Below are positions 33,140-62,876 of a DNA stretch of 64,000 bases, piece by piece (position 1 is the first letter of the stretch; each line of letters begins with the position of its first letter). The position numbers and the translations under genes are program-made. Under the pieces are notes generated by a model. It was not told the DNA's origin. It searched no databases and saw nothing but the letters and a program-made list of their open reading frames with translations. Origin of the DNA: Planctomycetota bacterium (GTDB lineage: Bacteria > Planctomycetota > Phycisphaerae > UBA1845). The stretch spans positions 6,756 to 70,755 of the forward strand of contig JAJRYY010000009.1 of NCBI GenBank assembly GCA_024275565.1. Direction: 5' to 3'.

Positions 33140-33391
33140 ATGTGCGATGCCATCCAGCAACACTTCAAGCAGCCTTGAGTTACTCCAAACAGCCTTGAAT
33201 TCGTACCGGATTATGCTAAAGTAGTGCTTCAGATTTCATCTGATGGGGAAAACCTGCCCCAGAACGCACGTTGTCGCATTTCGAATTTGTCAACGCTCAG
33301 GTTTCGCGAGCGGCGGGGTGATTGTTCATCTCAGAAGCATTGGTCGCAGGTGAAAAGCAAAATTTACTCAGACAGGAAAGGAGTCCTACTT

Positions 33392-40400: not shown

Positions 40401-40484
40401 CACAACAACCTCCTGGAAAGAACAATTCATCGACAGGGCGACCATGTCTTCCTAACAACAGGGCGCCCATATCTTCTTCAACAG

Positions 40485-40675
40485 TGTGGCCCATGTCTTC
40501 AGACATGGGGGAGCCGAAGACCACCCGCACAGCAACCCAAACTCTAGCCAAGCCTCAGGGTCCACTGTACGGACCACCATCACAACATAAAACGGGTCCC
40601 ACCGGCGACTCGTCCGCCAGCGTGCTTCATCACAGCATAAAACGGGTGCCACTGGCGGCTTGTCCGCCAGTGTCT
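40485..40675. repeat. REP-like element cluster in the rtcB-rtcA intergenic spacer
   Basis: Contains a CATGTCTTCAGACATG-GGGGAGCCGAAGA hairpin, a GGTCCACTGTACGGACC palindrome, and two copies of GGGT(G/C)CCAC(T/C)GGCG...CCGCCAG(T/C)G. Confidence 0.6.
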
Positions 40676-40730
40676 ATAACAAACACAACCATCGCATCCC
40701 ACACAGCACCCCAGACACACCACAACCACC

Positions 40731-42242: not shown

Positions 42243-42265
42243 GTTCCATGTGTACTGATAACCAT

Positions 42266-42282
42266 AAGCACCCTGCGTGCCA
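42266..42282 (-). promoter_or_regulatory. sigma-54 (-24/-12) promoter for rtcBA
   Basis: The minus strand reads TGGCACGcaggGTGCT, with a perfect -24 TGGCACG and correct spacing to a GC at -12. It lies 25-40 bp upstream of the rtcB start and next to the divergent rtcR. Confidence 0.5.
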
Positions 42283-42378
42283 GTTAGTCAAGTGTTGATT
42301 TATGGTGAAAAACGCCTGTGTGGTGCTGCGGATTTCCGAAAAGTTGATAAATCTGGATAGTTTTTTATAATCCTCGCT

Positions 42379-45923: not shown

Positions 45924-48900
45924 TTATGGAGCGGTATCGCCCCGGCGTACATCCTGCATCGCTCTTTGGATGAGAGGTCGATAATGTGTGCCGACACCTT
46001 CCTTGATGAGGTTTTCCGCTCCTTCCAGCAATGATTTTGCTTTGTCGAGGTCGCCTGAGCGTCGGTAGGCTTCTGCGAGGTGGTAAATGGCGGGGACGTA
46101 TTGCCGTTCCTTTTCGAGCAGCTTTGTGAGGAGTGCGATGGCTTCCGGATATTCTCCGAGCTTGACGTGCGTCCATGCGAGCGTGTCCTTGACGGTTGGA
46201 TGCCCATGGACCTGGGCTGCGCGCTGTGCGTAGGCGAGTGCGTCGCGCGGTCGATCCATTTTATCGCTCAGGAGGAATGCGAGGTTGTTGAGTCCTATAA
46301 TGTTGGTGTCGCTTATTTCCAGCAGGGCTTCATAGGTTTGCCTCGCGTTCTCGTAGTCTTCCTGCCGCTCATAGACGTTGCCAAGTCTGGCAAGGATGTA
46401 GATTTTCTCGGCATCGATGTTCGATGTTTCGATGATGCCCTGCATCAATGCTATTGCTTCTGAATCCTGCTCAAAATGTGCGCGGAGAATGGCGAGGATG
46501 TGGCGTTGTGCCCGCTCGAGCGTCGGGTCATCCAGTTTTTCGCTGAACAAGCCGACGGATTCTTCCTTGTCACACGAGCGAATGACGGCGACTCCGATTT
46601 CTTCCAGTGGACGTAATGTGCCGAACCCGGAATCTCGGAACGCCTTCAGGAACAATGGTACTGCCAATTCGAGCTGCCCGGTGTGTGCCAGCAGTTCGGC
46701 GTATCTTGCCTGAATGATCGTGTTAATTTTATCCTCAGGGACGACCTCCTTGTAGTATGTCAGCCCGCGATCGTATTGCTTCAGGGTGATGTATGCGCCA
46801 AGGAGGGATGCGACCTGGTCGGAATCGTATCCACTTAGTTTGGCTGCCTTCTCGTAGTCGACTATCGCGCTGGCTGCATCGCCGACCTTCATCTTCAACT
46901 CGCCGCGCTGGGTCACCCAGTAGGGATTGTCCTTGTAGCGATTTGCCATGGACGTCACTATGCGAATTGCGTCTGTATATCTGTCATGTACCTGATACAT
47001 GGCGACGAGATGTTTCGCCACCTTGATGGCTGACGGATCGTCGCGCAGAATTGATTCGAGCCCCTGGAACGCGAGTTCAAGATTGTGGACGAGTGCATAC
47101 CCATCCGCCAACAGCAGACGTGACTCGTAGTTCTGGAATTTCGGATCGACGCTTCTGATGCGTTCGAGCTCACGGATCGCGATAGGCCAACGCCCCTGTG
47201 AACCGTACAAGCGCGCTCGCTGCAAGGTTGCGTTGAGATCGTCTGGATGCCTGTCGAGATAGCGCGAGAGGTGTTCGATGGCGTCATCGACGCGGCCTGA
47301 GACGATTGAGACTGCGCTGTTGAGCAACATCACGTTCGGATCTTCCGGGTAACGCCGCTCAAAATCCTCGACGGCCTGCTGTGCGAGTTCCTTCTGGTGT
47401 GTTCGGAAAAACAGGTCGATTTTTCGACGCCGGAATTGAATGGCGATCTGTGTGGATTTCTGATCTGCGAGGTTGATTGCCCGATCGTACCATTCCAAAG
47501 CCGCTTCGAAGTCGCGTGCGTCAGTTTTAAAGGTGGCGAATGCAGCACACACTTCCAGGAATTCACCATGCGAGGCTGCGCGTTGCAGTGCGGCTTCTGC
47601 CCGTTTCATGTCGCCCTGCACATGCCAATGTTCTGCGAGAAGAAGCTCTGCTTTTGCTTTGGATTCCGGATCGGTCGCTTTTTTCGCATACCCCTGCAAG
47701 ACCTCGAGGGCGCGATCGGTCTCACCAATGGAGCGGAAGAATTTTGCGGCGATCAGGATCGTGTTGATGCGTGTGTCGGGTATTTTGAGGGCGTCATCGA
47801 AACATGCGACGGCATTTGGAATCTGCTTGGTGCGGATGTAGAGGTCCGCCAGCGCGATGAGATTTTCAACATTGGATGGCTGACTTGCCCGAATACGCTC
47901 TCGTCTCTGGATGCCCTCCACAGGCGTGGATTTTTCGCGAAGCGTCAGCAACTGAGACTGGACCCACGAATCGTTGGGGATCAGTTTGTCGCAATATTGA
48001 AGCCGCCGCACCAGCTCTTGCGGATTTCCCTGGACCGATGCGATGATCGCCAGCCCCTTTTGCGCCGCGCCGAGGTTTGGATTGGCTTCTACTGCCCTTG
48101 TAAAGTAGGTGCTTGCCTCGATGATGCGCGGCGGGGTGACAGACATTTGCGACTGCGCCATCAAGGTGAGCACATCGGCATTGGTGGGCTGCTTCTCCAA
48201 CGCCAGCTTGAACGATGAAATCGCCCCCTCATGGTCGCCCAGGACCTGGTACACACGGCCGCGATACGAGAGGCCGTCCGCCCCGTCGATGTTTTCCTTC
48301 ACGGCGGCTTGAACAATGGATTCCATCTCTTCTTCGTCGCGGGCTTCGGCGGCGGCGGCGAAACGTCGGTCCAGGATTTCGCGGAGGAATTTCTGCCGTA
48401 TCCCCTGATTTACGTTTGATTCGGGGGCGAGAAGTGCCGTTTGTGCAAGCTTGAGTGCAGCGACGTATGCGTCACGATTGCCATGCTGCAATTCAAGCTT
48501 GGCGATGCGGAAATTCCGTTCAAAATCGCTGGGAATCTCTTCGATCACCTTCATCTGGGCGTCATATCGCACCTCAGGAGCCATGTCTGGATCAGACACA
48601 GTCTCAAGCATCTTGAGGACCACGCTGTCTGGAGATTCTGCCATCCCACGGCGCACCAAAGTCAGCGCCTTGTCGTTCTGTTTCGCCTCATTGAGAATCT
48701 GCACCGCAAGCCGCAGGCAGGTGATGTTGGCTGGTTCATTTTGCAGCAGAGACTCGAGTATGGGCATTGCATCTGCCCCCTTGCCTGCGTCGTATAGCGC
48801 CTTGGCTTCCCGGTACAGATCGACCGGGGCTTCACGGAAGTAACTGTCGCGAATCGCGTTTGCAAGCTCCACCTGTCCGCGCCGCTGCAACGCCGTCATC

Positions 48901-50429
48901 TTCACGCGCAGTGCTTCTCGATTCTCCGGACTGCGTCGCAGGGCTTCGTCGACGGCTTGCAACGCCATCATGTCTTTGTTTGTCTCCAGCAAGATCTGTC
49001 CGTACAGCACCCAGCAGGAGGCGTCGGCTGTGTCATCGCCAATCGCATCGGCGATGGCTGACTCCGCGGCGCCTGGGCTTCCGCTTCGCAACAGGAGCTG
49101 TGCGAGCAAGCGACTGTTCTGCCAGTTTGGCTTTCCAAATTGCTTCCTCGCGTGCTCAAGAAGCGTGATCGCCTCGCGCTCGCGCCCCTGCCCGACTCGA
49201 ATCTTGCCCATCGTGTGCAGACCTGGACCCTGATCCGGAAATTCACCCGATGCCAGCACTGCAAAACCCTCAGCACGATCGAGAACCTCTGTGTACTCCT
49301 CCGAACCGGGATCGACTGTGGCTGCGTGTGCGAGACATTCTTCGGCGGCTTTTATCATGGTCAGATAAAGTGCGAACTTGCGCTGGAAGGTTTTGAATCC
49401 TTCGCGTCTGATGCCGAGATCGATGCGACTCTGACAGATTTTTACTGCTTCAAGATGATCGCCCTGGTATCCCGAAAGCTCGGCCAGGAGCATGTATGGC
49501 ATGAACCCCCTGTCGTAGATGGCGATGCTTTCTTCCAGCAGCTTCCTGGCGTTGTTGTAGTACTGCTCTGCTTCTTTCGCCAGGGCAGGGTCTCGTACAA
49601 CCTTGTACCAGCGAGCCACCCAGTACTGGGCAAACTGAGATTTGACATTGCCCGCGATTTCAGGATCGTCCCCGGAAAATTGCTCCGCTGCACGGAAATA
49701 TTTCAATGCGTCTTCGTGCTTGTTGTTGGCAGAAAGATACCGGGCAAACGTGTAACGCACACGCGCAGCCTCCTCGCCAGGCGTCTGGTGAACTTCGATC
49801 AGGCGTTTCAGTATGTTTTCTGCTTCCTCGGTGCGACCTTCAAGATGGATGATGCTCGCCATCGACAGCGCATACTTGACTACGTTTGGAGCAACCCGGA
49901 CCGCTCGGCGAATGTAGTCAATCCCCTCCCGACGATTTCCGCCGTCCTTCTCTGACAGACGCAACAATGCCGTCCCCAGACTGTAAAGCCCGAGCGGATT
50001 CTCCTGGTCGACTGCGAGCAATTCCTCGGATGCTTTTTTGACGCGTAACCAGCCTGCCGGCGTGCTGTGCATTTCCACCAGCTGGTTGGCTTTCTCGATG
50101 CCTTTTTCATGCGCCTCGACCAGGGAAGGGTCCTGATTGATCGCCTTCACCCAGAGCTCCCATGCCCCCTCGTCGTCGCCCTTCTCGTCGAGCATCTTTC
50201 CGGCTTCGACATAATACTTCGCGTCTCCGGAAACATTGGCTGCACGCATGTAAAAACTCTTGGCTTGCAACCAGTCGTTCTCGCTGGCACATTTCTTCGC
50301 CAGCTCAACATAGTGCGTTGGATCTGTCTGTCTCAGCGACAGAACCATGATCACGCCCACCGCTGTCATCACCACAAATCCTGCAAACGTCAGAGCACCG
50401 ACGAGTGGCTTGTTTATTTTCCTGGCCAT
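45924..50429 (-). CDS. membrane-anchored giant TPR-repeat protein (1501 aa)
   Basis: An N-terminal TM helix is followed by more than 30 TPR-like helical repeats. Confidence 0.75.
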   Translation of the reverse strand: MARKINKPLVGALTFAGFVVMTAVGVIMVLSLRQTDPTHYVELAKKCASENDWLQAKSFYMRAANVSGDAKYYVEAGKMLDEKGDDEGAWELWVKAINQDPSLVEAHEKGIEKANQLVEMHSTPAGWLRVKKASEELLAVDQENPLGLYSLGTALLRLSEKDGGNRREGIDYIRRAVRVAPNVVKYALSMASIIHLEGRTEEAENILKRLIEVHQTPGEEAARVRYTFARYLSANNKHEDALKYFRAAEQFSGDDPEIAGNVKSQFAQYWVARWYKVVRDPALAKEAEQYYNNARKLLEESIAIYDRGFMPYMLLAELSGYQGDHLEAVKICQSRIDLGIRREGFKTFQRKFALYLTMIKAAEECLAHAATVDPGSEEYTEVLDRAEGFAVLASGEFPDQGPGLHTMGKIRVGQGREREAITLLEHARKQFGKPNWQNSRLLAQLLLRSGSPGAAESAIADAIGDDTADASCWVLYGQILLETNKDMMALQAVDEALRRSPENREALRVKMTALQRRGQVELANAIRDSYFREAPVDLYREAKALYDAGKGADAMPILESLLQNEPANITCLRLAVQILNEAKQNDKALTLVRRGMAESPDSVVLKMLETVSDPDMAPEVRYDAQMKVIEEIPSDFERNFRIAKLELQHGNRDAYVAALKLAQTALLAPESNVNQGIRQKFLREILDRRFAAAAEARDEEEMESIVQAAVKENIDGADGLSYRGRVYQVLGDHEGAISSFKLALEKQPTNADVLTLMAQSQMSVTPPRIIEASTYFTRAVEANPNLGAAQKGLAIIASVQGNPQELVRRLQYCDKLIPNDSWVQSQLLTLREKSTPVEGIQRRERIRASQPSNVENLIALADLYIRTKQIPNAVACFDDALKIPDTRINTILIAAKFFRSIGETDRALEVLQGYAKKATDPESKAKAELLLAEHWHVQGDMKRAEAALQRAASHGEFLEVCAAFATFKTDARDFEAALEWYDRAINLADQKSTQIAIQFRRRKIDLFFRTHQKELAQQAVEDFERRYPEDPNVMLLNSAVSIVSGRVDDAIEHLSRYLDRHPDDLNATLQRARLYGSQGRWPIAIRELERIRSVDPKFQNYESRLLLADGYALVHNLELAFQGLESILRDDPSAIKVAKHLVAMYQVHDRYTDAIRIVTSMANRYKDNPYWVTQRGELKMKVGDAASAIVDYEKAAKLSGYDSDQVASLLGAYITLKQYDRGLTYYKEVVPEDKINTIIQARYAELLAHTGQLELAVPLFLKAFRDSGFGTLRPLEEIGVAVIRSCDKEESVGLFSEKLDDPTLERAQRHILAILRAHFEQDSEAIALMQGIIETSNIDAEKIYILARLGNVYERQEDYENARQTYEALLEISDTNIIGLNNLAFLLSDKMDRPRDALAYAQRAAQVHGHPTVKDTLAWTHVKLGEYPEAIALLTKLLEKERQYVPAIYHLAEAYRRSGDLDKAKSLLEGAENLIKEGVGTHYRPLIQRAMQDVRRGDTAP

Positions 50430-50555: not shown

Positions 50556-51350
50556 CTACAAAGCTTCCTGATCGTCTTCCAGTTCGGCTTCCTGTTCAGC
50601 TTCCAGTTCAGCTTCCTTGATCGCCTTCCAGTCAGGCCAATGTTCTTCAATCAGCAAGGGCAGGATGCGCGACAATATCTCGCGTGTCTCCTCGATCGCC
50701 TCTTCACGCGTTGGGAATGTCACCGTCCCGACGGTCACCTCAACCTTGCTATAGTATGCCTGACTGTCGTATGGGTTCGTAATCGCGCGAATGATCTCGC
50801 CTCGTCTGGCTGCAAATTTTCCATTCGCGTGGAACGTATAGATCACGGTCATGCTTGCGCTGTTGAAAATGCCCGTTTTCACGAACGTAAGAACGCGAAC
50901 CGTCACTTCCTTATCACCCTTCAGCGTGGGGATGGTCAGCGTGACGTAATCCTGCGAATCTGCCTCATAACCAGAAGCTGCCAGGCAAATATCGGGCGTG
51001 TGCAGATGCCGCTCGGTATTTCCGGGGTAGTAGGTCACCGACACCCGCGCGTAACGGCGCGGATCGTCGGGAGAATCGAGTTTCGTATTTTCCAGTACCC
51101 AGTTGATGTACTGATCCGTGCCAAGGGTCTCGACCACCGAAGATTCGAGCTGGTGAGATTTCACAAGATGGTATTTTCCAAGACGCCGCTCATCGAGTTG
51201 AGAGAGGGGTTTCCGAAGCTGAGCAGCCACCTTTTCCGTCGATACCCGGACGAGGCGTGCAAGGGGTTGCAATCCCAGGGCTGTAACACCCAGCAACATC
51301 GTGCAGATGAGAAACGGTTTGTTAAAAAAAGGAGGTGCCTGCTGACTCAT
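50556..51350 (-). CDS. hypothetical membrane-anchored protein with acidic C-terminal tail
   Basis: 264 aa with an N-terminal TM helix and a C-terminal tail EAELEAEQEAELEDDQEAL. It lies directly upstream of the TPR giant on the same strand. Confidence 0.45.
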   Translation of the reverse strand: MSQQAPPFFNKPFLICTMLLGVTALGLQPLARLVRVSTEKVAAQLRKPLSQLDERRLGKYHLVKSHQLESSVVETLGTDQYINWVLENTKLDSPDDPRRYARVSVTYYPGNTERHLHTPDICLAASGYEADSQDYVTLTIPTLKGDKEVTVRVLTFVKTGIFNSASMTVIYTFHANGKFAARRGEIIRAITNPYDSQAYYSKVEVTVGTVTFPTREEAIEETREILSRILPLLIEEHWPDWKAIKEAELEAEQEAELEDDQEAL

Positions 51351-51644
51351 TTCATCAATCGCTGTAAACTGTTTATCGACAATGCTTTAGAAGATTCGTA
51401 CGCATTCGAAGCACTTCCGGGGCATAGGATTATCGGGCCTTGCTTAAAGGTTACTCCGCCACCGAATACCGGTCAATTGTCCCGGGCATCGCTACCACCG
51501 GGAGACCGGATACTGGTCAATCGGAAGACCACCCTCGTCAATCCATGCTGGAGTCTCGTCAATCCGTGCTCGAGTATTGCGAATCCTGCCATGTCGGGCA
51601 GTGAGACGTCCGGGGCTGCACTCAACCGCTCCCCCATCTTCCAT

Positions 51645-51730
51645 GATTCCCCTGTGCTCCCCGCACTCCCTGTGCTCCCCGCACTCCCTGTACCCCCTGC
51701 ACTCGCTGTACTCCCTACCCTCCCTGTACG
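51645..51730. repeat. 18-bp tandem repeats (CCGCACTCCCTGTGCTCC x2 plus 2-3 degenerate units) upstream of the acetyltransferase gene
   Basis: Read directly from the sequence. Confidence 0.6.
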
Positions 51731-51814
51731 AATTGGCGACGATTGGTGTTCAGAGACGCTTTGCAATGTCCGATAAACCAAAATGACAATATCGCAGACT
51801 ATCGGGAGCGACTC

Positions 51815-52513
51815 ATGAAATCGATCATCGTAGGGTGCGGCGGGCATGGTCGTGTGGTACTGGATATCCTCCGGGCCGCCGAGATTCATGAGGTTGTGGG
51901 TTTCCTCGATTCCAATGCTGATATGAGTGGTCGGCGGATCGATGGGCTTGAGGTGCTTGGTGATTTGTCTGCCCTGGGGCGTGTTCGACATGACCTTGAG
52001 GTCGAGGGAGCAATCATCGCGATCGGCGACAACGGCGTTCGCCGCCATTATGCTGATATTTGCGAACGTACAGGCCTGAAGCTGGTCAACGCGATCCACC
52101 CGTCTGCGAATGTGGCTGCCAATGCTATTATCGGACGTAACGTCGTCATCGCAGCCGGCGCCCTCGTCTGCGCTCACTGCCAGATCGGCGATTCGGTCAT
52201 CCTCAACACCGGCAGCATCGTCGACCACGAAACCATGATCGGGACAGCCACGCATGTCTGCCCTGGCGCAAGACTTGCCGGTCGAGTCTCAGTCGAATCG
52301 GGTGCTTTTGTGGGCATCGGTGCGACGGTCATTCAAAGCGTGCGGATTGGTTGCGATGCGATTATCGGAGCTGGTGCCGTCGTGACTGACAACGTCGCAC
52401 CGCTGACGACCATGGTCGGCGTGCCAGCCCGCGAAATCAAACGGACCTGCGACGACGAATGGTCGACCTGGCTGGTGCCGGAATCTCTCCGCCGAACAGC
52501 ACCCGTTTCATAA
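51815..52513 (+). CDS. NeuD/PglD-family sugar N/O-acetyltransferase (left-handed beta-helix)
   Basis: MKSIIVGCGGHGRVVLDIL is the NeuD-type N-terminal Rossmann-like start. The C-terminal half carries hexapeptide repeats. Confidence 0.7.
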   Translation: MKSIIVGCGGHGRVVLDILRAAEIHEVVGFLDSNADMSGRRIDGLEVLGDLSALGRVRHDLEVEGAIIAIGDNGVRRHYADICERTGLKLVNAIHPSANVAANAIIGRNVVIAAGALVCAHCQIGDSVILNTGSIVDHETMIGTATHVCPGARLAGRVSVESGAFVGIGATVIQSVRIGCDAIIGAGAVVTDNVAPLTTMVGVPAREIKRTCDDEWSTWLVPESLRRTAPVS

Positions 52514-52612: not shown

Positions 52613-55435
52613 TTATGGGCGCGGTGACATGGATTGCCCGCTCCAGGACTGCGTTGCATTGCCGGTCCCGGAGAGTTCCTGACGGATGCGGAGCAGGTCG
52701 AGCGCCTGAATGACCCCGTTCCTGTCCATGTCGATGTAGTCAAGATCCTCGCCTTCTGGATTCTGGAATACCCCATTGAACATCTGACGGAAACGTAGCA
52801 GATCCAACGCCTGAACCACGCCGGACTGATCTATATCGCATGGCAGGAAACCAATGTCGATGCGATCCGGTTCATTCACGCCAGGCCCCTGATCGCCGCT
52901 GGAAGCAATCGGGTTGCCAGCAAGATCCTCGACGTCTGCTACGATGGTGGTCCAGAAACCTGCTGGAACCGGGCCAGACAATTCGACCTGTACCAGCGTA
53001 TTGTCTGCACTCAATATGCTGATCACCGATGGGTAGGATGGAGCGTCACCCATGAGTGTGAAGGCGCTGGTTGATAATGTTGCGTCTTCAGCCCCTGCGT
53101 CTCGTACCTGTTCTGAGAACAATATTGACAGTGTATCCACGCCCATATCGAACGCCTCACCATCGGAGCTTTCCATGCGAGAATCGACATATCCGCTATG
53201 CGGGAAGGTCGTGGTGCCGGCGTCGTGGACAATCTCCGGCGAGACAGTGTCCATGTCTTCACATACGAACACTTTCACGATGAAATCGTCGATGGCTGCT
53301 TCCGTCAGCGATACGGTCAGCACATCCGCCACCGAGAAACGAACCCGCATGCTGGCTGTCGGGGTCACAAAATCAGAGACATTGAACGACACGACTTCCC
53401 AGCCGCCATCACCGCCGGGTCCGACCGTTTCCAGATTGAACCAGTTCACGCCTCCGTCATTGGAAATTTCGACTTCGAGCGTATCGTTGTCGTTGTTGTT
53501 ATCGAACCATCGAGCGTACTCAATTGTCCCCTCCATGCCCTCCAGATCAAAAATCGGCGACGTCAGAATTACCGGCCCGCCATCGACATCGCAAGTGCCC
53601 GCCTGACCAGCACAATTCCCCGTCACGAAGCAGATCGTACCATCCTCAGAATAGTCGTCTTCCGGCTGAGCGGTGGTACCAATAGGATCCTCGCGAACCC
53701 ACTGCCCCGTCGTGTTCACCCCCTCGAAGGTTGATTCCCATCCGCCATCAAGCTCGAAATCATCTTCAAATCGAATCTCCAACGCGCCGACCTCCGCAAA
53801 GTATGTTTCGTCTGGCGCATTGAACGGACTGGTGACCACCGACTCCTCTGTCGAGGTCGCTGTAAAATAGAATTCCGGAACAGAATCACAGGTAGCCGCA
53901 GGCAGCGTTGCCTCATACTCATTGCCACCCAACGCCAGCATGGCAACCTGATCGAACGCTCCTCCGTCAAAACGATATACCAGCATGGGACTGCCAGGAT
54001 CAAGCTCTTCCGATCCCATGCTGATTTGCACGCGTATCGTGGTCGTTTCTCCGGGAACGATGGAACCCGGCAGTCCGTCGGGGAAGGCGTATCGCAGTGG
54101 TTGAATGGTCGCGAGTACAGCATCCAGTGTCGCTTTTGCATCGATGCGCCCTGCACCGAACATATTGTCAAAACCAGGATCGCCGAGATCCACAGCATTG
54201 TTTCTGAGGAACTGCCTGACCTCCTCCACCTGGATGTTCGGATTTAACGAGTACATCAATCCGACCAGCCCTGCGACGTGCGGCGTCGCCATCGATGTAC
54301 CGGTCTCATAGTTGTAATCTGCCGGCCCCCCGATCCATGTCGAAAAGACTGCTATCCCCGGGGCACAGACATCCATCCACGGACCTCGGTTTGAGGCTGT
54401 GTAATAAATGTCATTCTCGCCCGTGGCGGATACCGCGATGGTTTGAGGATAGGCGGCTGGAAAATAGGAGATGTTGCTACCATCGTTGCCAGCGGCTGCT
54501 ACGACCGTGACATCGTTGTCCCATGCATACTGAACGGCGGTCTGCAGGATACCCGCCCCACCACCACCGCCACCACTATAATTGACGATGTGTGCTCCAT
54601 TGTCCGTCGCGTAGGTAATCGCCTCTGCAATCGCTTCCCATGTCCCGGAAAGTCCGTTGAATACCTGCAGGGGCATGATCGTACAGTTGCTCATGCCCGC
54701 AATTCCTGCAGCATTGTTGATCTGGGCACCTGCAATGCCGGCCACATGCGTACCATGTCCGGAGGTCGGTGACGGATCGTTGTCCGAATTCATAAAATCC
54801 CAACCGATCGTGTCATCAATGAATCCGTTGCCGTCGTTGTCCAACCCGTCCGGCGGGTCGTCCACATTGACCCATAATCCACTCTGAAACTCTACATGGT
54901 CGAGTCGAAGCCCACTGTCTGCTATCGCAATGATAATCGCCGGATCACCCGTGGTGATGTCCCACGCTTCTTCAGCACGGATAATCATGGGTCCGTATTG
55001 CTCGGCCTCAAAAAAAGGATCGTTCGGTGTAAAGGCTGCACGGGTGATATAATTCGGGACGGCGTATGTGACGCCAGACAGCTTCGAGATTCGCTCAACC
55101 GCCTGCGCAACATCACTGCCGGGAGCGAGGTGAACCACCCGGACCATAGCCAGCGGATGGACCTGCTTGGGCTTGTTTTTCGCGTGCGGTGCGTGACGAA
55201 GCTCGTGCCAGCGCTCAGCGTCTGGTACGCACGCCTGAATACACTTCATCTCCCGTTCGCCGGGAACGTTCCGATAACCCACGATCAGCTGATCGGGTAC
55301 ATATGCCAGATCGATCTCTTTGACCGCAACAGGTTCTTTCGTCCTGGTAATGCCAAAGTCGTCGCCCACGCCCCATACAGCGTGATTATCCCCCGCCATT
55401 CCAATGAACAGGATCAAGCCAACAAGTCGCTTCAT
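52613..55435 (-). CDS. secreted subtilisin-like (S8) serine protease with C-terminal type-I dockerin
   Basis: The catalytic triad blocks are present: IADSG (Asp), GHGTHVAG (His) and GTSMATPHVAG (Ser). The C-terminal dockerin duplicate reads DIDQSGVVQALDLLRFRQ...DMDRNGVIQALDLLRIRQ. Confidence 0.85.
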   Translation of the reverse strand: MKRLVGLILFIGMAGDNHAVWGVGDDFGITRTKEPVAVKEIDLAYVPDQLIVGYRNVPGEREMKCIQACVPDAERWHELRHAPHAKNKPKQVHPLAMVRVVHLAPGSDVAQAVERISKLSGVTYAVPNYITRAAFTPNDPFFEAEQYGPMIIRAEEAWDITTGDPAIIIAIADSGLRLDHVEFQSGLWVNVDDPPDGLDNDGNGFIDDTIGWDFMNSDNDPSPTSGHGTHVAGIAGAQINNAAGIAGMSNCTIMPLQVFNGLSGTWEAIAEAITYATDNGAHIVNYSGGGGGGAGILQTAVQYAWDNDVTVVAAAGNDGSNISYFPAAYPQTIAVSATGENDIYYTASNRGPWMDVCAPGIAVFSTWIGGPADYNYETGTSMATPHVAGLVGLMYSLNPNIQVEEVRQFLRNNAVDLGDPGFDNMFGAGRIDAKATLDAVLATIQPLRYAFPDGLPGSIVPGETTTIRVQISMGSEELDPGSPMLVYRFDGGAFDQVAMLALGGNEYEATLPAATCDSVPEFYFTATSTEESVVTSPFNAPDETYFAEVGALEIRFEDDFELDGGWESTFEGVNTTGQWVREDPIGTTAQPEDDYSEDGTICFVTGNCAGQAGTCDVDGGPVILTSPIFDLEGMEGTIEYARWFDNNNDNDTLEVEISNDGGVNWFNLETVGPGGDGGWEVVSFNVSDFVTPTASMRVRFSVADVLTVSLTEAAIDDFIVKVFVCEDMDTVSPEIVHDAGTTTFPHSGYVDSRMESSDGEAFDMGVDTLSILFSEQVRDAGAEDATLSTSAFTLMGDAPSYPSVISILSADNTLVQVELSGPVPAGFWTTIVADVEDLAGNPIASSGDQGPGVNEPDRIDIGFLPCDIDQSGVVQALDLLRFRQMFNGVFQNPEGEDLDYIDMDRNGVIQALDLLRIRQELSGTGNATQSWSGQSMSPRP

Positions 55436-55712: not shown

Positions 55713-56696
55713 ATGACCATGACAACACGTCCATCAGGAGACCCTGCGGTGATCGATAAAATACTGCGCGACGTCAAGCTGCCATCGCTTCCAGATGCCG
55801 CCATCCGTATGCTGGAACTTTGCCGCGACCCCGGCGTCAGTGCCCAGGAAATCGTACGCGTTATCGAGCTAGACCCATCGCTGTCCGCACGCCTGCTGAA
55901 GGTCGCAAACAGCTCCTTCTTCGGACAAAGTGGCAAAATCGAGACCCTGACGCGTGCAGCCATCCTCCTTGGCAACGACTATCTGAAAGCGGTGGGACTC
56001 GGGTTCTTTCTCACGCAGACCTGGAAAGATGTGCAGCCTGACGGGTTCGATTTCCGGGAATTCTGGCGGGACAGCATCCTCCGGGCATGCCTGGCACGTC
56101 AGATCGCATCTAAAATCGATTATCACCCCAGGGAACAGGTCTTCCTGGCTGGCATGCTCGCGGACATTGGTTCCCTGGTGATGGGGGTGACCTTCGAAGG
56201 TGACTATGCGACGACCATGGGGCGTTTCGTCGGGGCGGATAACGACCGCAAGGATTACGAGCAGAAGCACTTCGGCGTCAACCATGTCGATCTGGGAAAA
56301 GCGATCGCCCAGAAATGGTCATTCCCCGAATCGATCGTGTGTGCAATCGCACGCCACCAGGACACGCCCCCCATGCGTGCAGACCGCGATCGCACCATTG
56401 TGCTGTGGCAGATTACGCACTTCTGCCTGACGGTTCCATTTGCTCAGGATCGGCAGACCGCCCAGGTGTGTTCCCAGTTGCGACAGTTGGCCATCATCTC
56501 ACTCGGACTCTCTTTCGAATCTCTGAGCGAACTTTTCTCCGAAACCGTTGAGCAATTCAATGTACTTGCGTCCGTTTTCTCCAACCTGCTCCCAGCAGAT
56601 GTGAACGTGTCGGACATGATGAATACTGCGACCGAGATGCTGCGCGAGGTGGATCAGCAGGCGACACAGCAGCTTGCACAAATCGAGTCCGAATAA
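55713..56696 (+). CDS. HDOD-domain signalling protein
   Basis: The region LPSLPDAAIRMLELCRDPGVSAQEIVRVIELDPSLSARLLKVANSSFFG matches the HDOD family. Confidence 0.8.
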   Translation: MTMTTRPSGDPAVIDKILRDVKLPSLPDAAIRMLELCRDPGVSAQEIVRVIELDPSLSARLLKVANSSFFGQSGKIETLTRAAILLGNDYLKAVGLGFFLTQTWKDVQPDGFDFREFWRDSILRACLARQIASKIDYHPREQVFLAGMLADIGSLVMGVTFEGDYATTMGRFVGADNDRKDYEQKHFGVNHVDLGKAIAQKWSFPESIVCAIARHQDTPPMRADRDRTIVLWQITHFCLTVPFAQDRQTAQVCSQLRQLAIISLGLSFESLSELFSETVEQFNVLASVFSNLLPADVNVSDMMNTATEMLREVDQQATQQLAQIESE

Positions 56697-56996
56697 TTAA
56701 GAGCAGAATCAGACGATGCGAACAGCATGTCAACGGCGAGGTGCAGCCCGACGTATTTTCATCGTAACCTTACCGCGACCCTTCCGCGCTGCTCGGACGT
56801 CCGAGAACCCTTTGAGGCTACAGACGTCCGAGAACACGCTGAGGCTACATTTGCAGCAAAAACACCGTTATCGGGTGCAGATTCCACTTGACTTCACCTC
56901 CTTTCGGTCACAACAATCCGATGCCTCCGGGAGTGGGCAATGGGGTGGCGATGGGTCACGATCTTCTCGTGCAGGAGATGAGTCGGCTCGTGAGGG

Positions 56997-58112
56997 ATGT
57001 CTGGGCGCGTATCGTGGGGGAGCAAAAAGGTGAGGGAACCGGAACTAACAGCAGTTGTGCTGGCGGGCGTACATGACTGGGGTGCGTGTGCGTTGAATCA
57101 GGCGGTGATTCGTCCGCTTGCACCCATCGCGAATATGCCGGTCGTTGGCTATGTGTTGCGTGCACTGGTGACAGCCCGGGTGCGTCGAGCGATACTGTGT
57201 ACCAACGGTCATGGTGATGCTTTCCGTGAGGCGATCGGGGATGGGAGCGCATTTGGCCTCGAACTCAGCATACGCGACGATGACATGCCAAGAGGACCAG
57301 CGGGTTGTTTGAAAGACGCTTATGCTGACCTTGAGGGCGACTGCCTCGTCATGGAATCAAGCCTCATACCACACTTCGACATACAGCAGCTTGTCGCAGA
57401 CCATCGCTCTACGGGGGCAGCTGTCACGATCGCCTCTCAAAAAACTCAAAAAGCGGGCATGGACCATTATTCACCTGTCGGTGTCTACGTCTTTTCGCCT
57501 GAAGTGGTCGAAGAAATCTCATCCACAGGATTCGTTGATATCAAGGAAAACGTGCTTCCCAGGCTTCACCATGAAGGCAAGCGCGTGGATGTTCATGTCG
57601 TCGATGGGCCAACGCCACATCTTCAAGGTATTGCAAGTTATTTTTCGTTGAATGAATGGGCAGTGAAAATGGCAGCCCGGGGTGCTTTCGATCTGGATGA
57701 ACACTATCTGGACGGGGAAACACTGGTGCATATTCACGCCGAAGTCGATCCAACCGCTCGGATGATGGGTCCGGTTGTCATCGGACCAGGAGCCCGCATA
57801 CGGGCTGGAGCAATCATCGTCGGTCCGACCTCGGTCGGTCAGGATAGCATCGTCGGGCAGAACTGCGTCATATCACGGTCTGCATTATGGGACAACACGA
57901 CCATCGGAAATGACGCCCAGGTTGACAGATGCGTCGTCGGGAAAACTGCACGCGTGGAGGAAAGTGTGCAGATGTTCAACAGTGTCTGCGTTCCATTACA
58001 GCCAAAAAGAAGCAGGTTTCTACCGAAAACACGCATCTCACATCCGAAAAACGATCCGTCACCGACACAGGGTGAAACCGAGGATGCAGTACGCAGGCAA
58101 CTGATGACGTAG
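56997..58112 (+). CDS. sugar-phosphate nucleotidyltransferase-like protein with C-terminal left-handed beta-helix
   Basis: An N-terminal NTP-transferase fold (AVVLAGVHDWGACALNQAVIRPLAPIANMPVVGYVL) is followed by hexapeptide repeats. Confidence 0.7.
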   Translation: MSGRVSWGSKKVREPELTAVVLAGVHDWGACALNQAVIRPLAPIANMPVVGYVLRALVTARVRRAILCTNGHGDAFREAIGDGSAFGLELSIRDDDMPRGPAGCLKDAYADLEGDCLVMESSLIPHFDIQQLVADHRSTGAAVTIASQKTQKAGMDHYSPVGVYVFSPEVVEEISSTGFVDIKENVLPRLHHEGKRVDVHVVDGPTPHLQGIASYFSLNEWAVKMAARGAFDLDEHYLDGETLVHIHAEVDPTARMMGPVVIGPGARIRAGAIIVGPTSVGQDSIVGQNCVISRSALWDNTTIGNDAQVDRCVVGKTARVEESVQMFNSVCVPLQPKRSRFLPKTRISHPKNDPSPTQGETEDAVRRQLMT

Positions 58113-58322
58113 AAACCGTCACATCGAAAAAGATCGTGCCAGTCGGGTCGGAAACGCACGATCGGGCGAGAACCAGGCCAATGCGTCTGGAACATTGCTG
58201 ATCTGAACGCTTTGGGAGAGGCGGTTCGGATGTCTTGCAACAGAGTGATTCATTCGCGTATCTGATGGAATGGCTGGTAAACGCCATGGTGTTCCTTCAA
58301 ATACGCAGGGAGAGAGAAGCTG

Positions 58323-59042
58323 ATGTCAAACGTACCGAAACAACATAAAACAGGTCTTCTGGCTGCCATCCTCTGCGTCGCAACTGTGACCGGACTGGCC
58401 AGCCCGACGATGGGCGAAACACTCACATATTCGCAATCCTTCAAACCTCGGAAGCCAGGCTGGTCTTCGACGTTTAGAGCACCACAATTCGACCCCACAT
58501 TGGGAACGCTCGAATCGGTGGTGATTTCACTGACGGGTCGTACGGAGGGCGTAGCTGCCTTTGAAAATCTGGGAGAGAGTCCGGCGGATGTCCAGATTCG
58601 CTACACCGCCGAGTTCCAGCTCGTCCAGGATTCATCACCCATCCTTGTCGCATCTCCGACCCTGGAACTGTCCGATGTGGTGTCAGCTTTCGACGGTGTT
58701 CTAAACTACACAGGTGATTCCGGACGTACTTATAAGGACATCGCCGCTGATGCAACATCCGATACAACCTTCATCCTCGGACGCGACGATCTTACCAGTT
58801 ATATAGGAACCGGACTGCTGTCCATACGCCTGCTGACAGGAGGGTTTATCGGCCAACCCCAGTCCAGCGGTGCTCTGAACGCATCAGACGACCTTGAATT
58901 GTACATTAACCAGAGGTTGTCGGCGACGGTGGATCTGACCTATGAGTACACAGCCGTACCAGAACCTGGTCTGGCGACACTGGTAGGTCTTGGCGGAGGC
59001 GTGTTGCTACGCAGACGTCGCCGGGCGATGAAAGCCTCATGA
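58323..59042 (+). CDS. PEP-CTERM-anchored secreted protein
   Basis: A signal peptide is present. The C-terminus reads TAVPEPGLATLVGLGGGVLLRRRRRA, which is PEP followed by a TM helix and an Arg cluster. Confidence 0.75.
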   Translation: MSNVPKQHKTGLLAAILCVATVTGLASPTMGETLTYSQSFKPRKPGWSSTFRAPQFDPTLGTLESVVISLTGRTEGVAAFENLGESPADVQIRYTAEFQLVQDSSPILVASPTLELSDVVSAFDGVLNYTGDSGRTYKDIAADATSDTTFILGRDDLTSYIGTGLLSIRLLTGGFIGQPQSSGALNASDDLELYINQRLSATVDLTYEYTAVPEPGLATLVGLGGGVLLRRRRRAMKAS

Positions 59043-59105
59043 CGCGACCGGCAACCCTGTCAAGACGGAAGCAATGCACCAACACGCGTACAGCAGGGGG
59101 ATCTG

Positions 59106-60860
59106 ATGGCGACTCAGGGGATCATTTGCGACTTCCGGATACGGCGATCGGAGACTGGTAGTCCCCACTCGCTTCTGACCATGCCACTGGGCATCGATCA
59201 CATGATCGACACTGTATTATCAGCACTGACCAACTGCGGATGCGACCATGTCCTGATCGTACCCGCTTTCAAACCCTGTCACGAATACCTCTCAAGGATC
59301 GCAGAACTGGCGGACCACACCCCGGTGACCGTCGTAGACCCTGACGAACGCACCGGGATCCTCACAGACGGCGAATCGTCCGACAGCCTGGTCTTTCTCG
59401 ACCCACGTTATTGGCCTGCAGGTGGATTCGAGCTCAACCCAATCCTGAAAATGCATCGCGAATATTTCGGACCCGTGTTCGGAGTACATCTCAGCCCGGA
59501 GGCTGGTGACCAGTCAGAGCGGGTCCTCATGGACGCCTCAGGGAACGTCCGAAAAATCCAGCGCGCATTCGACAAAACTCTCTGGTCGAACGCAGATGCA
59601 ACCACCGTACCATTCTGCGTCATCCCGCACGGACTGATTATGCATGGCCCGACCTTCCCACTGAGCAAAATGCGACAACAACTTGCACAGCATGGGGCAC
59701 CGATCCGCGACATCCCCATGAATTCACGAACACGCGACCTCAGCAGACAATCCGATTTAATCGCATTCTGCAGCGACCGGGCAGCCAACCCGACCGAGCG
59801 GGACCTCGCAATCGCACCTCCAGGACCGGACCAGCCCCACGCCCTCGTCGCCAGAGAAGCAACCGTCGCAGACACTGCCCGACTCATCGGCCATGTGATG
59901 GTGCTTCCAGATGCCCTTGTGGGCGAAAATGCGATCATTATTGGACCGACTGTCATCGGACAGGGTGCTACAATTGGTTCTGATGTCACCGTGTCGCAAT
60001 CGGTCGTACTGGATCGAACCGTTGTACCTTGTGGCGTCCAGATTCACCATCAGATATTCGCAGGCGACATCGATACAGACAACGCCCATGATACGATCGA
60101 AGACGCACCACGACTTGCCCAACCGGTAGAGGGTGAGTTTGAAGTTGTCGGGTCGGATCCGGGACACGTTGCGAGTGGGCAGAAACGACTGCAAAGATCT
60201 CTCGTCGTCAAGCGGATCATGGATATCACCGTCTCACTGACTGGGTTGATCGTTCTAACACCACTGATGCTGCTGACAGTCATCCTGATAAAACTGACTT
60301 CCACCGGACCGGTATTTTTCATTCACCGTCGTGAAGGCCGCGACGGTCGGGAGTTCGGCTGCGCCAAATTTCGTACCATGCGTACAGACGCACACGCCAT
60401 GCAGCGCGAACTGGCACAGCAAAACGAAGCAGATGGTCCTCAATTCGTCATTAAGAAAGACCCACGGGTCACGCCACTCGGCAGAATTCTGAGAAAGAGC
60501 AACATCGACGAATTACCCCAGCTATTCAACGTACTCATGGGCGATATGAGCCTCGTCGGACCCCGACCGTCGCCCTTCCGAGAGAACCAGGTCTGCCTGC
60601 CATGGCGTAAAGCAAGACTGTCTGTACCACCGGGCATCACCGGACTCTGGCAAGTCTGCCGCCACAGTCGCGAGGAAGGCGATTTCCACCAGTGGATCTA
60701 TTTCGATACAGCTTACGTCCGACACATGTCTGCCTGGCTGGATGTGAAAATCATCTTCTACACCTTCGTGACCCTGGGAGGGAGAAGACCGGTCGCAATG
60801 GAACGCATCGTCGGTCAGGATGCAGAAATCAGACAGGCATCGATGGCAGCGGGCACCTGA
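59106..60860 (+). CDS. fusion protein: divergent nucleotidyltransferase-like/hexapeptide N-terminal module plus C-terminal polyprenyl-phosphate sugar phosphotransferase (WbaP/EpsB-type priming transferase)
   Basis: The C-terminal 200 aa carry the bacterial sugar-transferase signature ([10 protein letters not shown]...PGITGLWQV) behind one TM helix. The N-terminal 350 aa are paralogous to the ORF at 56997-58112. Confidence 0.75.
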
Positions 60861-60950
60861 GGCCTGAAGGTAAGAATAAGCACGCTGACGAAGGGTGCAA
60901 AACCAGGTCAACGCAAAACCAGGTCAACACGCTCAGGGCAGAATACATTC

Positions 60951-61307
60951 TCAATCGTCAAAGAGAAACTTCGCGCCAACCTTAAATGAACCAACGCTCT
61001 GCGTGCTGTGTTGTATGCGGATCGGTATCCACAGATCCTCTTCATCATCAATACAGCGGATCTCCACGATGCTTCGCGGCGGAATCTCCAGCTTGCAGAC
61101 AAACCCCACACCACTGCTGGACACATTGGTACCTCGGGCGACGACGACCCGCCCGTCGCATTTCAGCTCCAACGCCGCCGACCAGGGATAGAACCGTGGC
61201 TCGTCCCTTTTGCCCAGATATGGGGTGGTCTCAGCATCCAGAAAATCGCCCAGCCACTCAATGACCTTCTCTCTCGTCTGACTCTCTGTTGCTAGCATCG
61301 CCCGCAT
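60951..61307 (-). CDS. stand-alone PilZ-domain (c-di-GMP-binding) protein
   Basis: An R..PR motif and N-V-S-S-S-G-V-G motif are spaced about 30 aa apart. Confidence 0.6.
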   Translation of the reverse strand: MRAMLATESQTREKVIEWLGDFLDAETTPYLGKRDEPRFYPWSAALELKCDGRVVVARGTNVSSSGVGFVCKLEIPPRSIVEIRCIDDEEDLWIPIRIQHSTQSVGSFKVGAKFLFDD

Positions 61308-61325
61308 ATCTCCATCAAAATCTGA

Positions 61326-62513
61326 TTATGGCTTTCTACCGAACAACTTCCCGAGCAACCCGCTACCCGCCACCCCAATGCCGGCTTTTAACATGGCGTA
61401 TTCGGGAGCAATTTTCAATGCCATCTCCTGAATGGCCGTTCGCGCCTTGCTCGTGGGAGCATCAGCACCAATCGGATGACCAAGATCGAGTGATGCAGAA
61501 ACATACTGGTAATCGTTGGGTATCACTGCGAACACAGGCCGACGGAAGTGCTGCTCGACATCCTTGATTGAGATGCGATCAAATTCGGCATTCCAGCGAT
61601 TCAACACAATATGCACACGGTCGTCATCAGCGCCCATGCTGATAAGCGAATGATAGATACGCGAAGCATTCCGAATGAACGGGACACCAAGCTGAGTTAC
61701 GATGAGGATATGATCGGCCCGACCAATGCAGACCGCACTCAGGAAATTAAAGGAGCGCGGGAGATCCACGACGATATTGTTATAATGTCGCCCGAGCAAT
61801 CCAAACATCTGCTCAACGCCGTCCAGCGACACGTCACGGGCATCTTCAACATTATCAGGACGCGCCACAATAGAAACACCACACGGCAGACGTTCCAGAA
61901 CAGCTGACACAGAAGTTTCGTCCAGTTCAATACCTTCATGACAGATATCTGCAATCGAGTATCTGGGATTCACATCGAAGGAGCAGGCAACATCCCCAAA
62001 CTCAAGGTTCATATCAACCAGCGCAACGTCTTCGCCCGACAGACACTGCAACTCCATCGCGAGGTTGCAGGCCAGCATCGTCGCTCCAGCACCACCCGAA
62101 GAACCGACAACGCAGATCGTCCGCGAACCGACCAATGGCTTGGCCACTATCGGCTTCATCCGATAAATGGCATTGTTGAGATCCTCAGCCTCAACAGGCC
62201 AACACACATACTGACTGCACCCGGAACGCATGGCTCCGATAATGAACAGAGATTCGGTCCTGCTGCTGACCCCCAGCACGCCACATTCCGGAATCAGGCG
62301 AGCACACTTTTCTACCACCTTCATCCCGCCGGGGCAGTCCAGATTCACCGCGATGACGTCGACTGTCCCTTCAGCAAGACATAGCTGAAGCGCGTCCCAC
62401 CCATCGAAGACCCGCTCAACGGTAACCTGCTCACAAGCATCGAACGGTTCACGGAACGCAGACTCTCTCGATACAGTGTCGTCATATAAGGCTATGCGCA
62501 ATTTGCTATTCAT
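61326..62513 (-). CDS. CpaE/TadZ-like protein: N-terminal pseudo-receiver plus MinD/ParA-type ATPase
   Basis: A deviant Walker A (VVGSSGGAGATMLACNLA) is present. The N-terminal domain is REC-like (LRIALYDD...VDVIAVNLD). The gene forms an operon with the downstream PilZ gene. Confidence 0.7.
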   Translation of the reverse strand: MNSKLRIALYDDTVSRESAFREPFDACEQVTVERVFDGWDALQLCLAEGTVDVIAVNLDCPGGMKVVEKCARLIPECGVLGVSSRTESLFIIGAMRSGCSQYVCWPVEAEDLNNAIYRMKPIVAKPLVGSRTICVVGSSGGAGATMLACNLAMELQCLSGEDVALVDMNLEFGDVACSFDVNPRYSIADICHEGIELDETSVSAVLERLPCGVSIVARPDNVEDARDVSLDGVEQMFGLLGRHYNNIVVDLPRSFNFLSAVCIGRADHILIVTQLGVPFIRNASRIYHSLISMGADDDRVHIVLNRWNAEFDRISIKDVEQHFRRPVFAVIPNDYQYVSASLDLGHPIGADAPTSKARTAIQEMALKIAPEYAMLKAGIGVAGSGLLGKLFGRKP

Positions 62514-62876
62514 ATAAGTCCCCGCCCTTGCGGTACACACAGAAAATGCCCGCTCGACCCGTAAGTCCTCACATCTCAACCCATAAGCATCGTCCATTCA
62601 GAGTCCGTTGTTTGGACGGAACTCGACTTGGGGTACTTATTCTGAATGGCGCATACCCTATCGGACCTGCTGGCAGGGTTATCGGTCACGACGGACATAA
62701 TGTGAACCATCAGACGACGTCAACCGATGGACTGACTAGCATCTTGGACACAATCGTTGAATGTCAAATCGACGATCAGCCACGTCGTTTTGCCCAACGC
62801 CGGATTCCTCGCTATACTGACACGACAAAGCGTCGCAAAGGGCGACGCATTCCTACCCAGGGAGCGTGTCACAATC

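Follow-up and report, generated by a model that had tools for sequence, protein, structure and literature searches.

The 64,000-nucleotide (nt) stretch analyzed here, called the window below, belongs to contig JAJRYY010000009.1 of a Planctomycetota bacterium (class Phycisphaerae) and carries three genes on the plus strand at 56997-58112, 58323-59042, and 59106-60860. The third encodes a 584-amino-acid protein in which a predicted active monotopic phosphoglycosyl transferase (PGT) domain is fused to a diverged relative of the nucleoside diphosphate (NDP)-sugar pyrophosphorylases. The first encodes a free paralog of that N-terminal module, and the middle gene encodes a putative exosortase substrate with a PEP-CTERM tail. 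Open reading frames (ORFs) were recovered at all three positions, on the shared strand, as an earlier reading of this DNA (the original prediction) had placed them. The fused PGT and the free paralog are a conserved unit. We postulate that their pyrophosphorylase-like modules form a pseudoenzyme platform for regulation or oligomerization that gates the PGT, and that the window holds a second, diverged copy of the unit; on balance, we lean toward this explanation.

56997..58112, plus strand: free NDP-sugar-pyrophosphorylase-like protein, 371 amino acids, alpha/beta domain and left-handed beta-helix (LbH), predicted noncatalytic; assigned by Pfam, NCBIfam, hhalign, and AlphaFold/Foldseek

58323..59042, plus strand: secreted choice-of-anchor-E protein with a PEP-CTERM tail, 239 amino acids, putative exosortase substrate; assigned by profile, signal peptide, and tail

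59106..60140, plus strand: N-terminal cytoplasmic module of the fusion, with a diverged nucleotidyltransferase-like alpha/beta domain (residues ~1-235), an LbH (~240-320; LbH profile match, 249-321), and a disordered linker (325-354), predicted noncatalytic

60141..60860, plus strand: catalytic domain of a monotopic PGT, including a re-entrant membrane helix; profile and motifs predict that it is active

Two homologous modules that have lost canonical catalytic residues

The free protein matches Pfam NTP_transferase (PF00483) over residues 35 to 151 with 37.6 bits (cutoff, 21.2), and a Hexapep/LbH match covers residues 250 to 329. Its best NCBIfam matches are mannose-1-phosphate guanylyltransferase and RmlA-long, all far under the equivalog cutoffs. 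The true start of the gene is probably the GTG at 57030, because homologues begin about 5 residues ahead of the conserved AVVLAG. The AlphaFold model (predicted local distance difference test [pLDDT], 89.7) has tlr0611, VTC1, GMPPA/B, and eIF2B as its top Foldseek matches.

Residues 1 to 245 of the fusion gave no Pfam NTP_transferase match. It is placed in the superfamily by remote homology only, through hhalign against canonical enzymes (99.1%) and Foldseek matches to GMPP-type structures (E = 1e-15). The AlphaFold model of the whole fusion (pLDDT, 81.3) finds its matches among LbH-tailed NDP-sugar pyrophosphorylases, and its C-terminal part matches PglC structurally.

BLASTP between the two modules is significant over the LbH only (E = 3e-10). 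We therefore compared families, using alignments of 61 full-length fusion homologues (A1), 44 free-protein homologues (A2), and 25 canonical NDP-sugar synthases (A3), with the following hhalign results.

A1 versus A2: 99.7% probability, E = 1.5e-26, over 271 columns that cover both the alpha/beta domain and the LbH

A2 versus A3: 100% probability, E = 9e-48

A1 versus A3: 99.1% probability, E = 3.9e-19

The best Foldseek matches of both models in the PDB were VTC1-KJC2, GMPPA/GMPPB, tlr0611, ST0452, eIF2B gamma/epsilon, AGPase, and GlmU, with E values of 1e-20 to 1e-11 for VTC1-KJC2, GMPPA/GMPPB, tlr0611, ST0452, and eIF2B. Because the family profiles and the structural matches agree, the two modules are homologous, as originally predicted, and the fused one is the more diverged.

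Catalytic positions were then tabulated in the three families, each given as the letter and the percentage of sequences that carry it.

Signature Gly: canonical, G96; free, V75; fused, variable

Signature Arg: canonical, R96; free, G70; fused, variable

Lys of PK: canonical, K96; free, R90; fused, missing

Mg-binding Asp: canonical, D100; free, T/S; fused, R75

E and K of EKP: canonical, E100/K100; free, deleted together with about 21 residues; fused, not conserved

Second Asp: canonical, D100; free, R77; fused, D in 77%

In motif terms, the free family has AGVHxWG for the canonical GGxGTRL, xR for PK, ExT/S for GD, and R for WxD, and it has lost the EKP segment. The fused module has IxD after strand 1 where the G-rich loop is expected, and its signature Arg and Lys are variable or gapped. 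The original prediction had asked whether the N-terminal module retains its catalytic residues; the G-rich loop, Arg, and Lys are absent or variable, and Arg stands in place of the Mg-binding Asp. Both modules thus lack the canonical nucleotidyl-transfer residues family-wide. Neither is likely to be catalytic or to make an NDP-sugar, and we predict that both are pseudoenzymes.

Each module nevertheless has invariant residues of its own. In the fused module these are P27, E138, G146, R153, and D202. The free family retains the base-binding loop (PRGPAG), a G-x-Y motif, and an E/K-containing motif, along with the Lys-to-Arg swap, and the motif LAGVHxWG...RPLLPV is present in 66 free paralogs. 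Such invariance implies selection for some function, and both modules therefore appear to be under selection.

Canonical RmlA-type genes (LAGGLGTRL...NKHLLPV) stand beside the free-family motif in two of the same loci. Both lie downstream of the fused PGT gene, at 13836-14825 in L010 and 11407-12432 in L065, with GGLGTRL and the Lys intact; by these motifs, genuine NDP-sugar synthesis at the two loci appears to be supplied by a separate gene. ORFs of ~270 to 340 amino acids that resemble these genes occur downstream of the PGT gene in about 10 loci, and the motif was read in L010 and L065 only.

An intact PGT domain without the usual membrane bundle

Bac_transf (PF02397) matches residues 369 to 556 of the fusion with 211.2 bits (cutoff, 27), as expected from the original assignment of a PGT domain of the WbaP/exopolysaccharide (EPS) type. 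In phmmer comparisons the domain matches WbaP (8t53; E = 2.4e-38) and also PglC. The D468-E469 dyad, P486-R487-P488, and KFRTM are invariant in 61 homologues and align to the WbaP motifs.

The AlphaFold model places a re-entrant helix with a Ser/Thr-Pro break at residues 352 to 398. Its LTPL fits the family consensus LSPLLL, and P386 is at least 90% conserved. The sole hydrophobic stretch of the protein is 366 to 408, with no transmembrane (TM) segment before residue 366. Given such a helix, the N-terminal module must be cytoplasmic.

The EPS sugar transferase profiles TIGR03025 and TIGR03013 (EpsB_2 of the XrtA/PEP-CTERM system), named in the original prediction as a check, match the catalytic C-terminal half of the protein, and both scores lie below the curated cutoffs. 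TIGR03025 gives 262.3 (cutoff, 295.55) and aligns only from about model position 250 to the end, and TIGR03013 gives 168.7 (cutoff, 393.35) over the C-terminal half only. TIGR03023 (212 against 411) and TIGR03022 (207 against 403) likewise align only from about position 250 to the end. The N-terminal four-helix membrane bundle and the PF13727 domain of unknown function (DUF) that characterize large monotopic PGTs were not found in the fusion.

The fusion and its free paralog are conserved together

A scan of species-representative genomes returned 589 relatives confirmed by tblastn, and loci were analyzed for the best 80 of the 589. At least 80 copies thus count as full length: they span practically the whole query unless the contig is too short, with six that start at residues 81 to 108, several of them at a contig end. 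A protein search found at least 120 clusters of 570 to 630 amino acids that cover 85 to 100% of the fusion, all Phycisphaerae or Phycisphaerales wherever they are named. When the N-terminal 350 residues were searched exhaustively, 307 clusters at 50% identity were retrieved, nearly all of them 560 to 650 amino acids long and matching at their N-terminal end; the N-terminal module is practically never free-standing. The architecture described as unusual in the original prediction is, by the best 80 relatives and the 307 clusters, standard for the PGT of a whole lineage.

Most of the best 80 relatives are metagenome-assembled genomes (MAGs) of Phycisphaerae/Planctomycetota. One coherent clade of the tree (L058, L062, L066, L068, L070, L072, and L074) is labeled Gemmatimonadaceae/Acidobacteriota/Vicinamibacteria, and some of its loci have exosortase/EpsI directly upstream. 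The pair in these MAGs could reflect either lateral spread or misbinning.

Gene order was read from 87 related loci annotated by phmmer, by jackhmmer, and with hidden Markov models (HMMs) whose sources were the window and locus L001. Of the 65 loci that have at least 4.5 kb of upstream DNA, 62 carry the free paralog there, in the same orientation as the PGT gene. A Wzz/bacterial tyrosine kinase (BY-kinase) gene stands between the two genes in 37 of these 62. The PGT gene is followed by Poly_export in 30 of 72 loci, 22 loci have a NusG-like gene ahead of the pair, and an exosortase or EpsI gene occurs within 10 kb in 15. The usual arrangement runs from the NusG-like gene to EpsI, and a closed Phycisphaerales chromosome shows it complete, in the order NusG-like gene, free paralog, Wzz/kinase, fused PGT, Poly_export, exosortase, EpsI, and flippase. 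The predicted link to exosortase and EPS biology is thus upheld by the operons of the relatives, in which the pair is accompanied by Wzz/tyrosine kinase, Poly_export, exosortase, and EpsI.

The fused PGT is present twice in several genomes (L004/L030, L005/L041, L016/L050, L019/L044, L026/L077, and L054/L069). Our literature searches on PGT with pyrophosphorylase or pseudoenzyme, and on exosortase with Phycisphaerae, returned no description of this architecture. A conserved monotopic PGT variant with a pseudo-pyrophosphorylase module and a paralog encoded in trans is apparently undescribed.

The window belongs to a second context type with signaling genes

The window falls in a distinct clade of seven loci (the window, L083, L084, L003, L086, L002, and L004). 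None of the seven has Wzz/kinase, Poly_export, exosortase, EpsI, or NusG-like operon neighbors beside the pair. The free-paralog tree and the fused-protein tree set apart the same six loci as the window's clade, and the pair must therefore have been inherited and diversified together.

L004, which is of the window type, and L030, a full Wzz/Poly_export operon type, lie on one contig (CAYRHJ010000038.1), from which we conclude that the window type is an additional copy, not a replacement. The window-type copy on that contig has no adjacent free paralog and has two PEP-CTERM genes about 8 kb away. A 348-amino-acid ORF upstream of it was considered as a cryptic free paralog and was rejected on testing.

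Three genes around the pair in the window suggest a signaling context, and the loci of the clade have some or all of them.

55713..56696, plus strand: HDOD-domain signaling protein (HDOD, 176 bits), directly upstream of the pair and syntenic in L003, L083, and L084

60951..61307, minus strand: PilZ-domain protein of 118 amino acids (PilZ, 28.4 bits; cutoff, 22.5), with RxxxR and NxSxxG intact, convergent with the fused PGT gene

61326..62597, minus strand: protein of 423 amino acids with a receiver-like domain and a MinD/BcsQ/TadZ-like P-loop ATPase, syntenic in L002, L083, and L084

The PilZ orthologues in L002, L083, and L084 retain the RxxxR and NxSxxG motifs, and HD-GYP-type (HD_5) genes adjoin the cluster in L002 and L083. 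The PilZ and MinD-like pair suggests cyclic di-GMP (c-di-GMP) or positional control of the window's PGT copy.

A PEP-CTERM gene was inserted between the pair

The middle protein matches NCBIfam choice_anch_E (NF033208) with 92.9 bits (cutoff, 23.8) over residues 34 to 209 and the whole model (1 to 172 of 172). It has a signal peptide at residues 10 to 32, and its C terminus, VPEP-GLATLVGLGGGVLL-RRRRR, consists of a PEP motif, a hydrophobic helix, and a basic cluster. TIGR02595 (PEP_CTERM) scores 15.9, marginally under its cutoff of 16; with the tail and the signal peptide, we accept the original identification as a PEP-CTERM protein. This is the sole PEP-CTERM-like tail in the window.

Among the 87 loci, the window and L083 are alone in having a PEP-CTERM gene between the two genes of the pair. 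L083 is a 64%-identical relative in which two choice-of-anchor-E genes (41% and 32% identical) occupy that position. The gene is therefore a lineage-specific insertion that does not belong to the conserved pair. Its position could be incidental: the gene may have been inserted recently, be regulated on its own, and have no functional link with the PGT pair. We regard this as quite possible, if somewhat short of probable. Besides the restriction to two loci, the 210-nt gap that separates the gene from the free paralog gene is consistent with such an origin, as are the few (nine) other homologues of the protein, which lie in unrelated contexts. Against it, the gene has persisted despite 36% sequence divergence, with a duplication in L083, and it lies on the same strand only 63 nt upstream of the PGT gene. 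An association of PEP-CTERM proteins with EPS is well established (PMC1569441), and the retention of this arrangement fits that association, although it does not by itself prove coupling. If the two are coupled, the gain of the gene between the halves of the pair would place an exosortase cargo under coexpression with polysaccharide initiation.

An HMM search of the 64-kb window for exosortase, Wzz, and Poly_export found none, in agreement with the original statement that exosortase, chain-length, and export genes are missing from the window. The window nevertheless holds two genes of the exosortase system, an EpsI-family and a PrsT-like gene, which lie 6 to 13 kb upstream of the pair. An acetyltransferase gene is nearby.

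45924-50429, minus strand: PrsT-like tetratricopeptide repeat (TPR) protein of 1501 amino acids, adjoining the EpsI gene; its best family is PrsT of the XrtA/PEP-CTERM system (263.6, below the cutoff of 312.2)

50556-51350, minus strand: orphan EpsI/DUF3485-family gene (33.1 bits; cutoff, 26.1)

51743-52513, plus strand: NeuD/PglB/VioB-family sugar N-acetyltransferase (TIGR03570, 208.6 bits; cutoff, 160.8), divergent from the EpsI gene

The NeuD/PglD-family gene hints that acetamido sugars are made nearby. A 260-amino-acid ORF upstream of EpsI (51473-52255, minus strand) was considered as an exosortase and rejected; it has no TM segments or family match, and it overlaps the well-supported NeuD/PglD gene on the opposite strand. 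In related genomes, an exosortase lies beside the operon-type (type 1) copy of the pair.

A proposed pseudoenzyme platform for polysaccharide initiation

We propose the following model. Polyprenyl phosphate would receive a sugar-1-phosphate, taken by the PGT from an NDP-sugar, as the start of a lipid-linked polysaccharide. The cytoplasmic N terminus of the enzyme, in place of a WbaP-type bundle and DUF, is a degenerate nucleotidyltransferase-like domain followed by a short LbH. The free and fused modules may associate, probably through their LbH domains, as do GMPPA/GMPPB and eIF2B gamma/epsilon, and the resulting heteromer could act as a cytoplasmic platform for regulation and oligomerization that gates the PGT, much as the nucleotide-sensing DUF does in WbaP. 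In most relatives the unit is part of an EPS operon of the exosortase/Wzx-Wzy type; the copy in the window appears to have left that setting and to reside now among signaling genes of the c-di-GMP type (HDOD, PilZ, and MinD/BcsQ-like ATPase).

We propose a regulatory or scaffolding role for the pair because accessory partners in GMPPA/GMPPB, eIF2B gamma/epsilon, and WbaP offer close analogies. The WbaP DUF binds uridine nucleotides, mediates dimerization, and has been proposed to be allosteric (PMC10942596); EpsW activates EpsZ (PMC12802240); and noncatalytic GMPPA binds GDP-mannose and regulates GMPPB (PMC11228364). GMPPA/GMPPB, VTC1-KONJAC, and eIF2B gamma/epsilon share the two-domain fold of the modules described here, of which they are the top structural matches, and each pairs paralogs of which one or both have given up catalysis to serve as a regulator or structural subunit. 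They differ in that here both partners appear to be dead, one of them forms a single polypeptide with a membrane enzyme from another family, and the interaction is proposed by analogy.

With the PglC/WbaP superfamily (PF02397; small, large, and bifunctional PGTs [Sm-, Lg-, and Bi-PGTs]), the fusion shares the core of DE dyad, PRP motif, and re-entrant helix. Like Lg-PGTs, it has a cytoplasmic accessory domain with a nucleotide-binding fold N-terminal to the core, and like Bi-PGTs, it has a soluble domain fused to the core. It departs from the former in having no four-helix bundle or PF13727 DUF, from true Bi-PGTs in that the fused domain is predicted to be noncatalytic, and from both in the presence of a neighboring gene for a free paralog of the accessory module. 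As with the sugar transferases of XrtA/PEP-CTERM EPS loci (TIGR03013, EpsB_2; TIGR03025, EPS_sugtrans), the family appears to supply the initiating PGT of exosortase-linked loci; in contrast to them, the protein scores below both cutoffs and has a different N-terminal architecture, and the window copy stands outside such an operon. The concept of a small cytoplasmic partner that controls the first committed step of EPS synthesis, proposed here, is known from EpsW-EpsZ of Myxococcus and from kinase control of CapM, where the partner is a response regulator or a kinase rather than a predicted pyrophosphorylase-like pseudoenzyme.

Several observations weigh against our interpretation. L004 and L031 carry the fused PGT with no free paralog found within reach. 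The c-di-GMP link is one of gene neighborhood only, and L003, L004, and L086 lack the PilZ/ATPase pair. The interdomain geometry of the fusion model is poorly defined (predicted template-modeling score [pTM], 0.55), and binding between the two modules is argued from analogy. The alignment of the fused module with canonical enzymes is remote (~12 to 19% identity), which makes some residue assignments uncertain, for example EK to QR and the second Mg site, where 77% of the sequences have Asp. Finally, the motifs retained in the free family, together with its Lys-to-Arg swap, leave noncanonical chemistry possible; "catalytically dead" is a description drawn from sequence.

More tentatively, we suggest that the two modules form a heteromer at the membrane face, like eIF2B gamma/epsilon or GMPPA/GMPPB, that switches the PGT allosterically in response to a metabolite or second messenger; this specific mechanism is possible but falls well short of being probable. 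In the window's clade, the neighboring PilZ and MinD-like proteins may relay this input. Such a switch would be a previously unrecognized, lineage-wide control of the first committed EPS step in Phycisphaerae, and it would apparently extend to some Acidobacteriota and Gemmatimonadota.

Alternatively, the modules might neither sense nor regulate and might simply replace the four-helix bundle and DUF for dimerization or docking, for example in a Wzz/BY-kinase-Wza assembly. The loss of ligand-contacting residues and the frequent presence of the Wzz/BY-kinase gene between the two genes are in keeping with a passive scaffold, and the WbaP DUF also serves in dimerization (PMC10942596). We consider this rather unlikely, given that both modules have invariant charged and aromatic clusters in the former active-site region, beyond what a passive scaffold needs, and that the window's clade retains the pair though Wzz and Wza are gone from its neighborhood.

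The original prediction that the fusion could channel an activated sugar directly to the lipid carrier fares less well. Under that hypothesis, the N-terminal module, by itself or together with its free counterpart, would make an NDP-sugar from a sugar-1-phosphate and a nucleoside triphosphate and hand it to the PGT. Both modules do share the fold and superfamily of NDP-sugar pyrophosphorylases, public annotations label the free protein [quoted passage not shown] and bifunctional monotopic PGTs with fused catalytic domains are a recognized class (PMC10942596, PMC10186338); the free family also keeps its base-binding loop, and Arg in place of Lys could still contact phosphate. However, synthesis of an activated sugar requires nucleotidyl transfer, for which the residues have been lost: the GxGTR signature loop is absent from both modules, the Mg-binding Asp is replaced by T/S or R, and the EKP segment that binds the sugar phosphate is gone from the free family and shows no conservation in the fused one. 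Several relatives, moreover, encode a canonical RmlA-like protein separately at the same locus. We therefore judge channeling to be improbable, and a regulator or scaffold is the more likely role of the modules.

Least probable of all is an acyltransferase-PGT fusion in which the LbH would be a sugar N- or O-acetyltransferase that modifies the NDP-sugar of the PGT, like Neisseria PglB or the C-terminal domain of GlmU: hexapeptide repeats are present, JGI labels some homologues "glycosyltransferase/acetyltransferase-like," and a NeuD/PglD-family gene lies 7 kb upstream, but the LbH of the fused module is short (about five coils, residues ~246 to 314), best matches the noncatalytic LbH of eIF2B/GMPPB-type pyrophosphorylases (NeuD, LpxD, and CysE models reach only 15 to 27 bits), has the very place behind a nucleotidyltransferase-like domain that the LbH of GMPPB and eIF2B has, and is followed by a disordered linker and not by an acyl-CoA-binding cap.

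How bacteria throttle the first polysaccharide step, which consumes undecaprenyl phosphate, is an active question, to which the WbaP DUF and the response regulator of EpsZ are recent answers. A degenerate pyrophosphorylase module on the PGT, with its trans-encoded paralog, would offer a third, structurally unrelated solution, and the fusion and paralog are shared by hundreds of genomes of uncultured Phycisphaerae and their allies. Recognition of the pseudoenzyme modules would also correct a likely systematic misannotation, both of the free protein as a synthase or guanylyltransferase and of the fusion as glycosyltransferase/acetyltransferase-like. The second context type, with its HDOD, PilZ, and MinD/BcsQ-like genes, may tie polysaccharide initiation to c-di-GMP or spatial control in planctomycetes.

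Leader sequence and other genes in the window

A 300-nt leader separates the HDOD gene from the free paralog gene and contains a short duplication.

56796..56849, plus strand: tandem 27-nt duplication in perfect register, two copies, 89% identical

The repeat is unique in the window (two matches versus zero expected by chance). It had been reported at 56786-56845, a few bases off its actual position. BLASTN of the leader, including the repeat, against the 87 related loci showed no conservation, and an Rfam scan of 56600-61400 gave no match at E ≤ 1. A scan for sigma-70 promoters and terminators found no more sites than in shuffled sequence, and no sigma-54 -24/-12 sites were found upstream of the three genes. 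Base composition is uniform across 44 to 64 kb, which does not indicate an island.

Farther upstream on the minus strand, 52613-55435 encodes a 940-amino-acid peptidase of the subtilisin (S8) family that combines a fervidolysin-like prodomain with a dockerin domain at its C terminus; L084 has a shorter orthologue in the same position. An RNA repair cluster at 39384-43986 comprises a gene for the sigma-54 activator RtcR (42379-43986, plus strand; NF038308, 775 bits) and genes for the RtcB ligase (40731-42242) and the RtcA cyclase (39384-40445), both on the minus strand. We also detected, at 33224-37369 on the plus strand, a gene for a 1381-amino-acid protein in which G8 and CEMIP beta-helix domains occur together with bacterial Ig domains; the combination of G8 and CEMIP is best known from animal hyaluronan-binding proteins.

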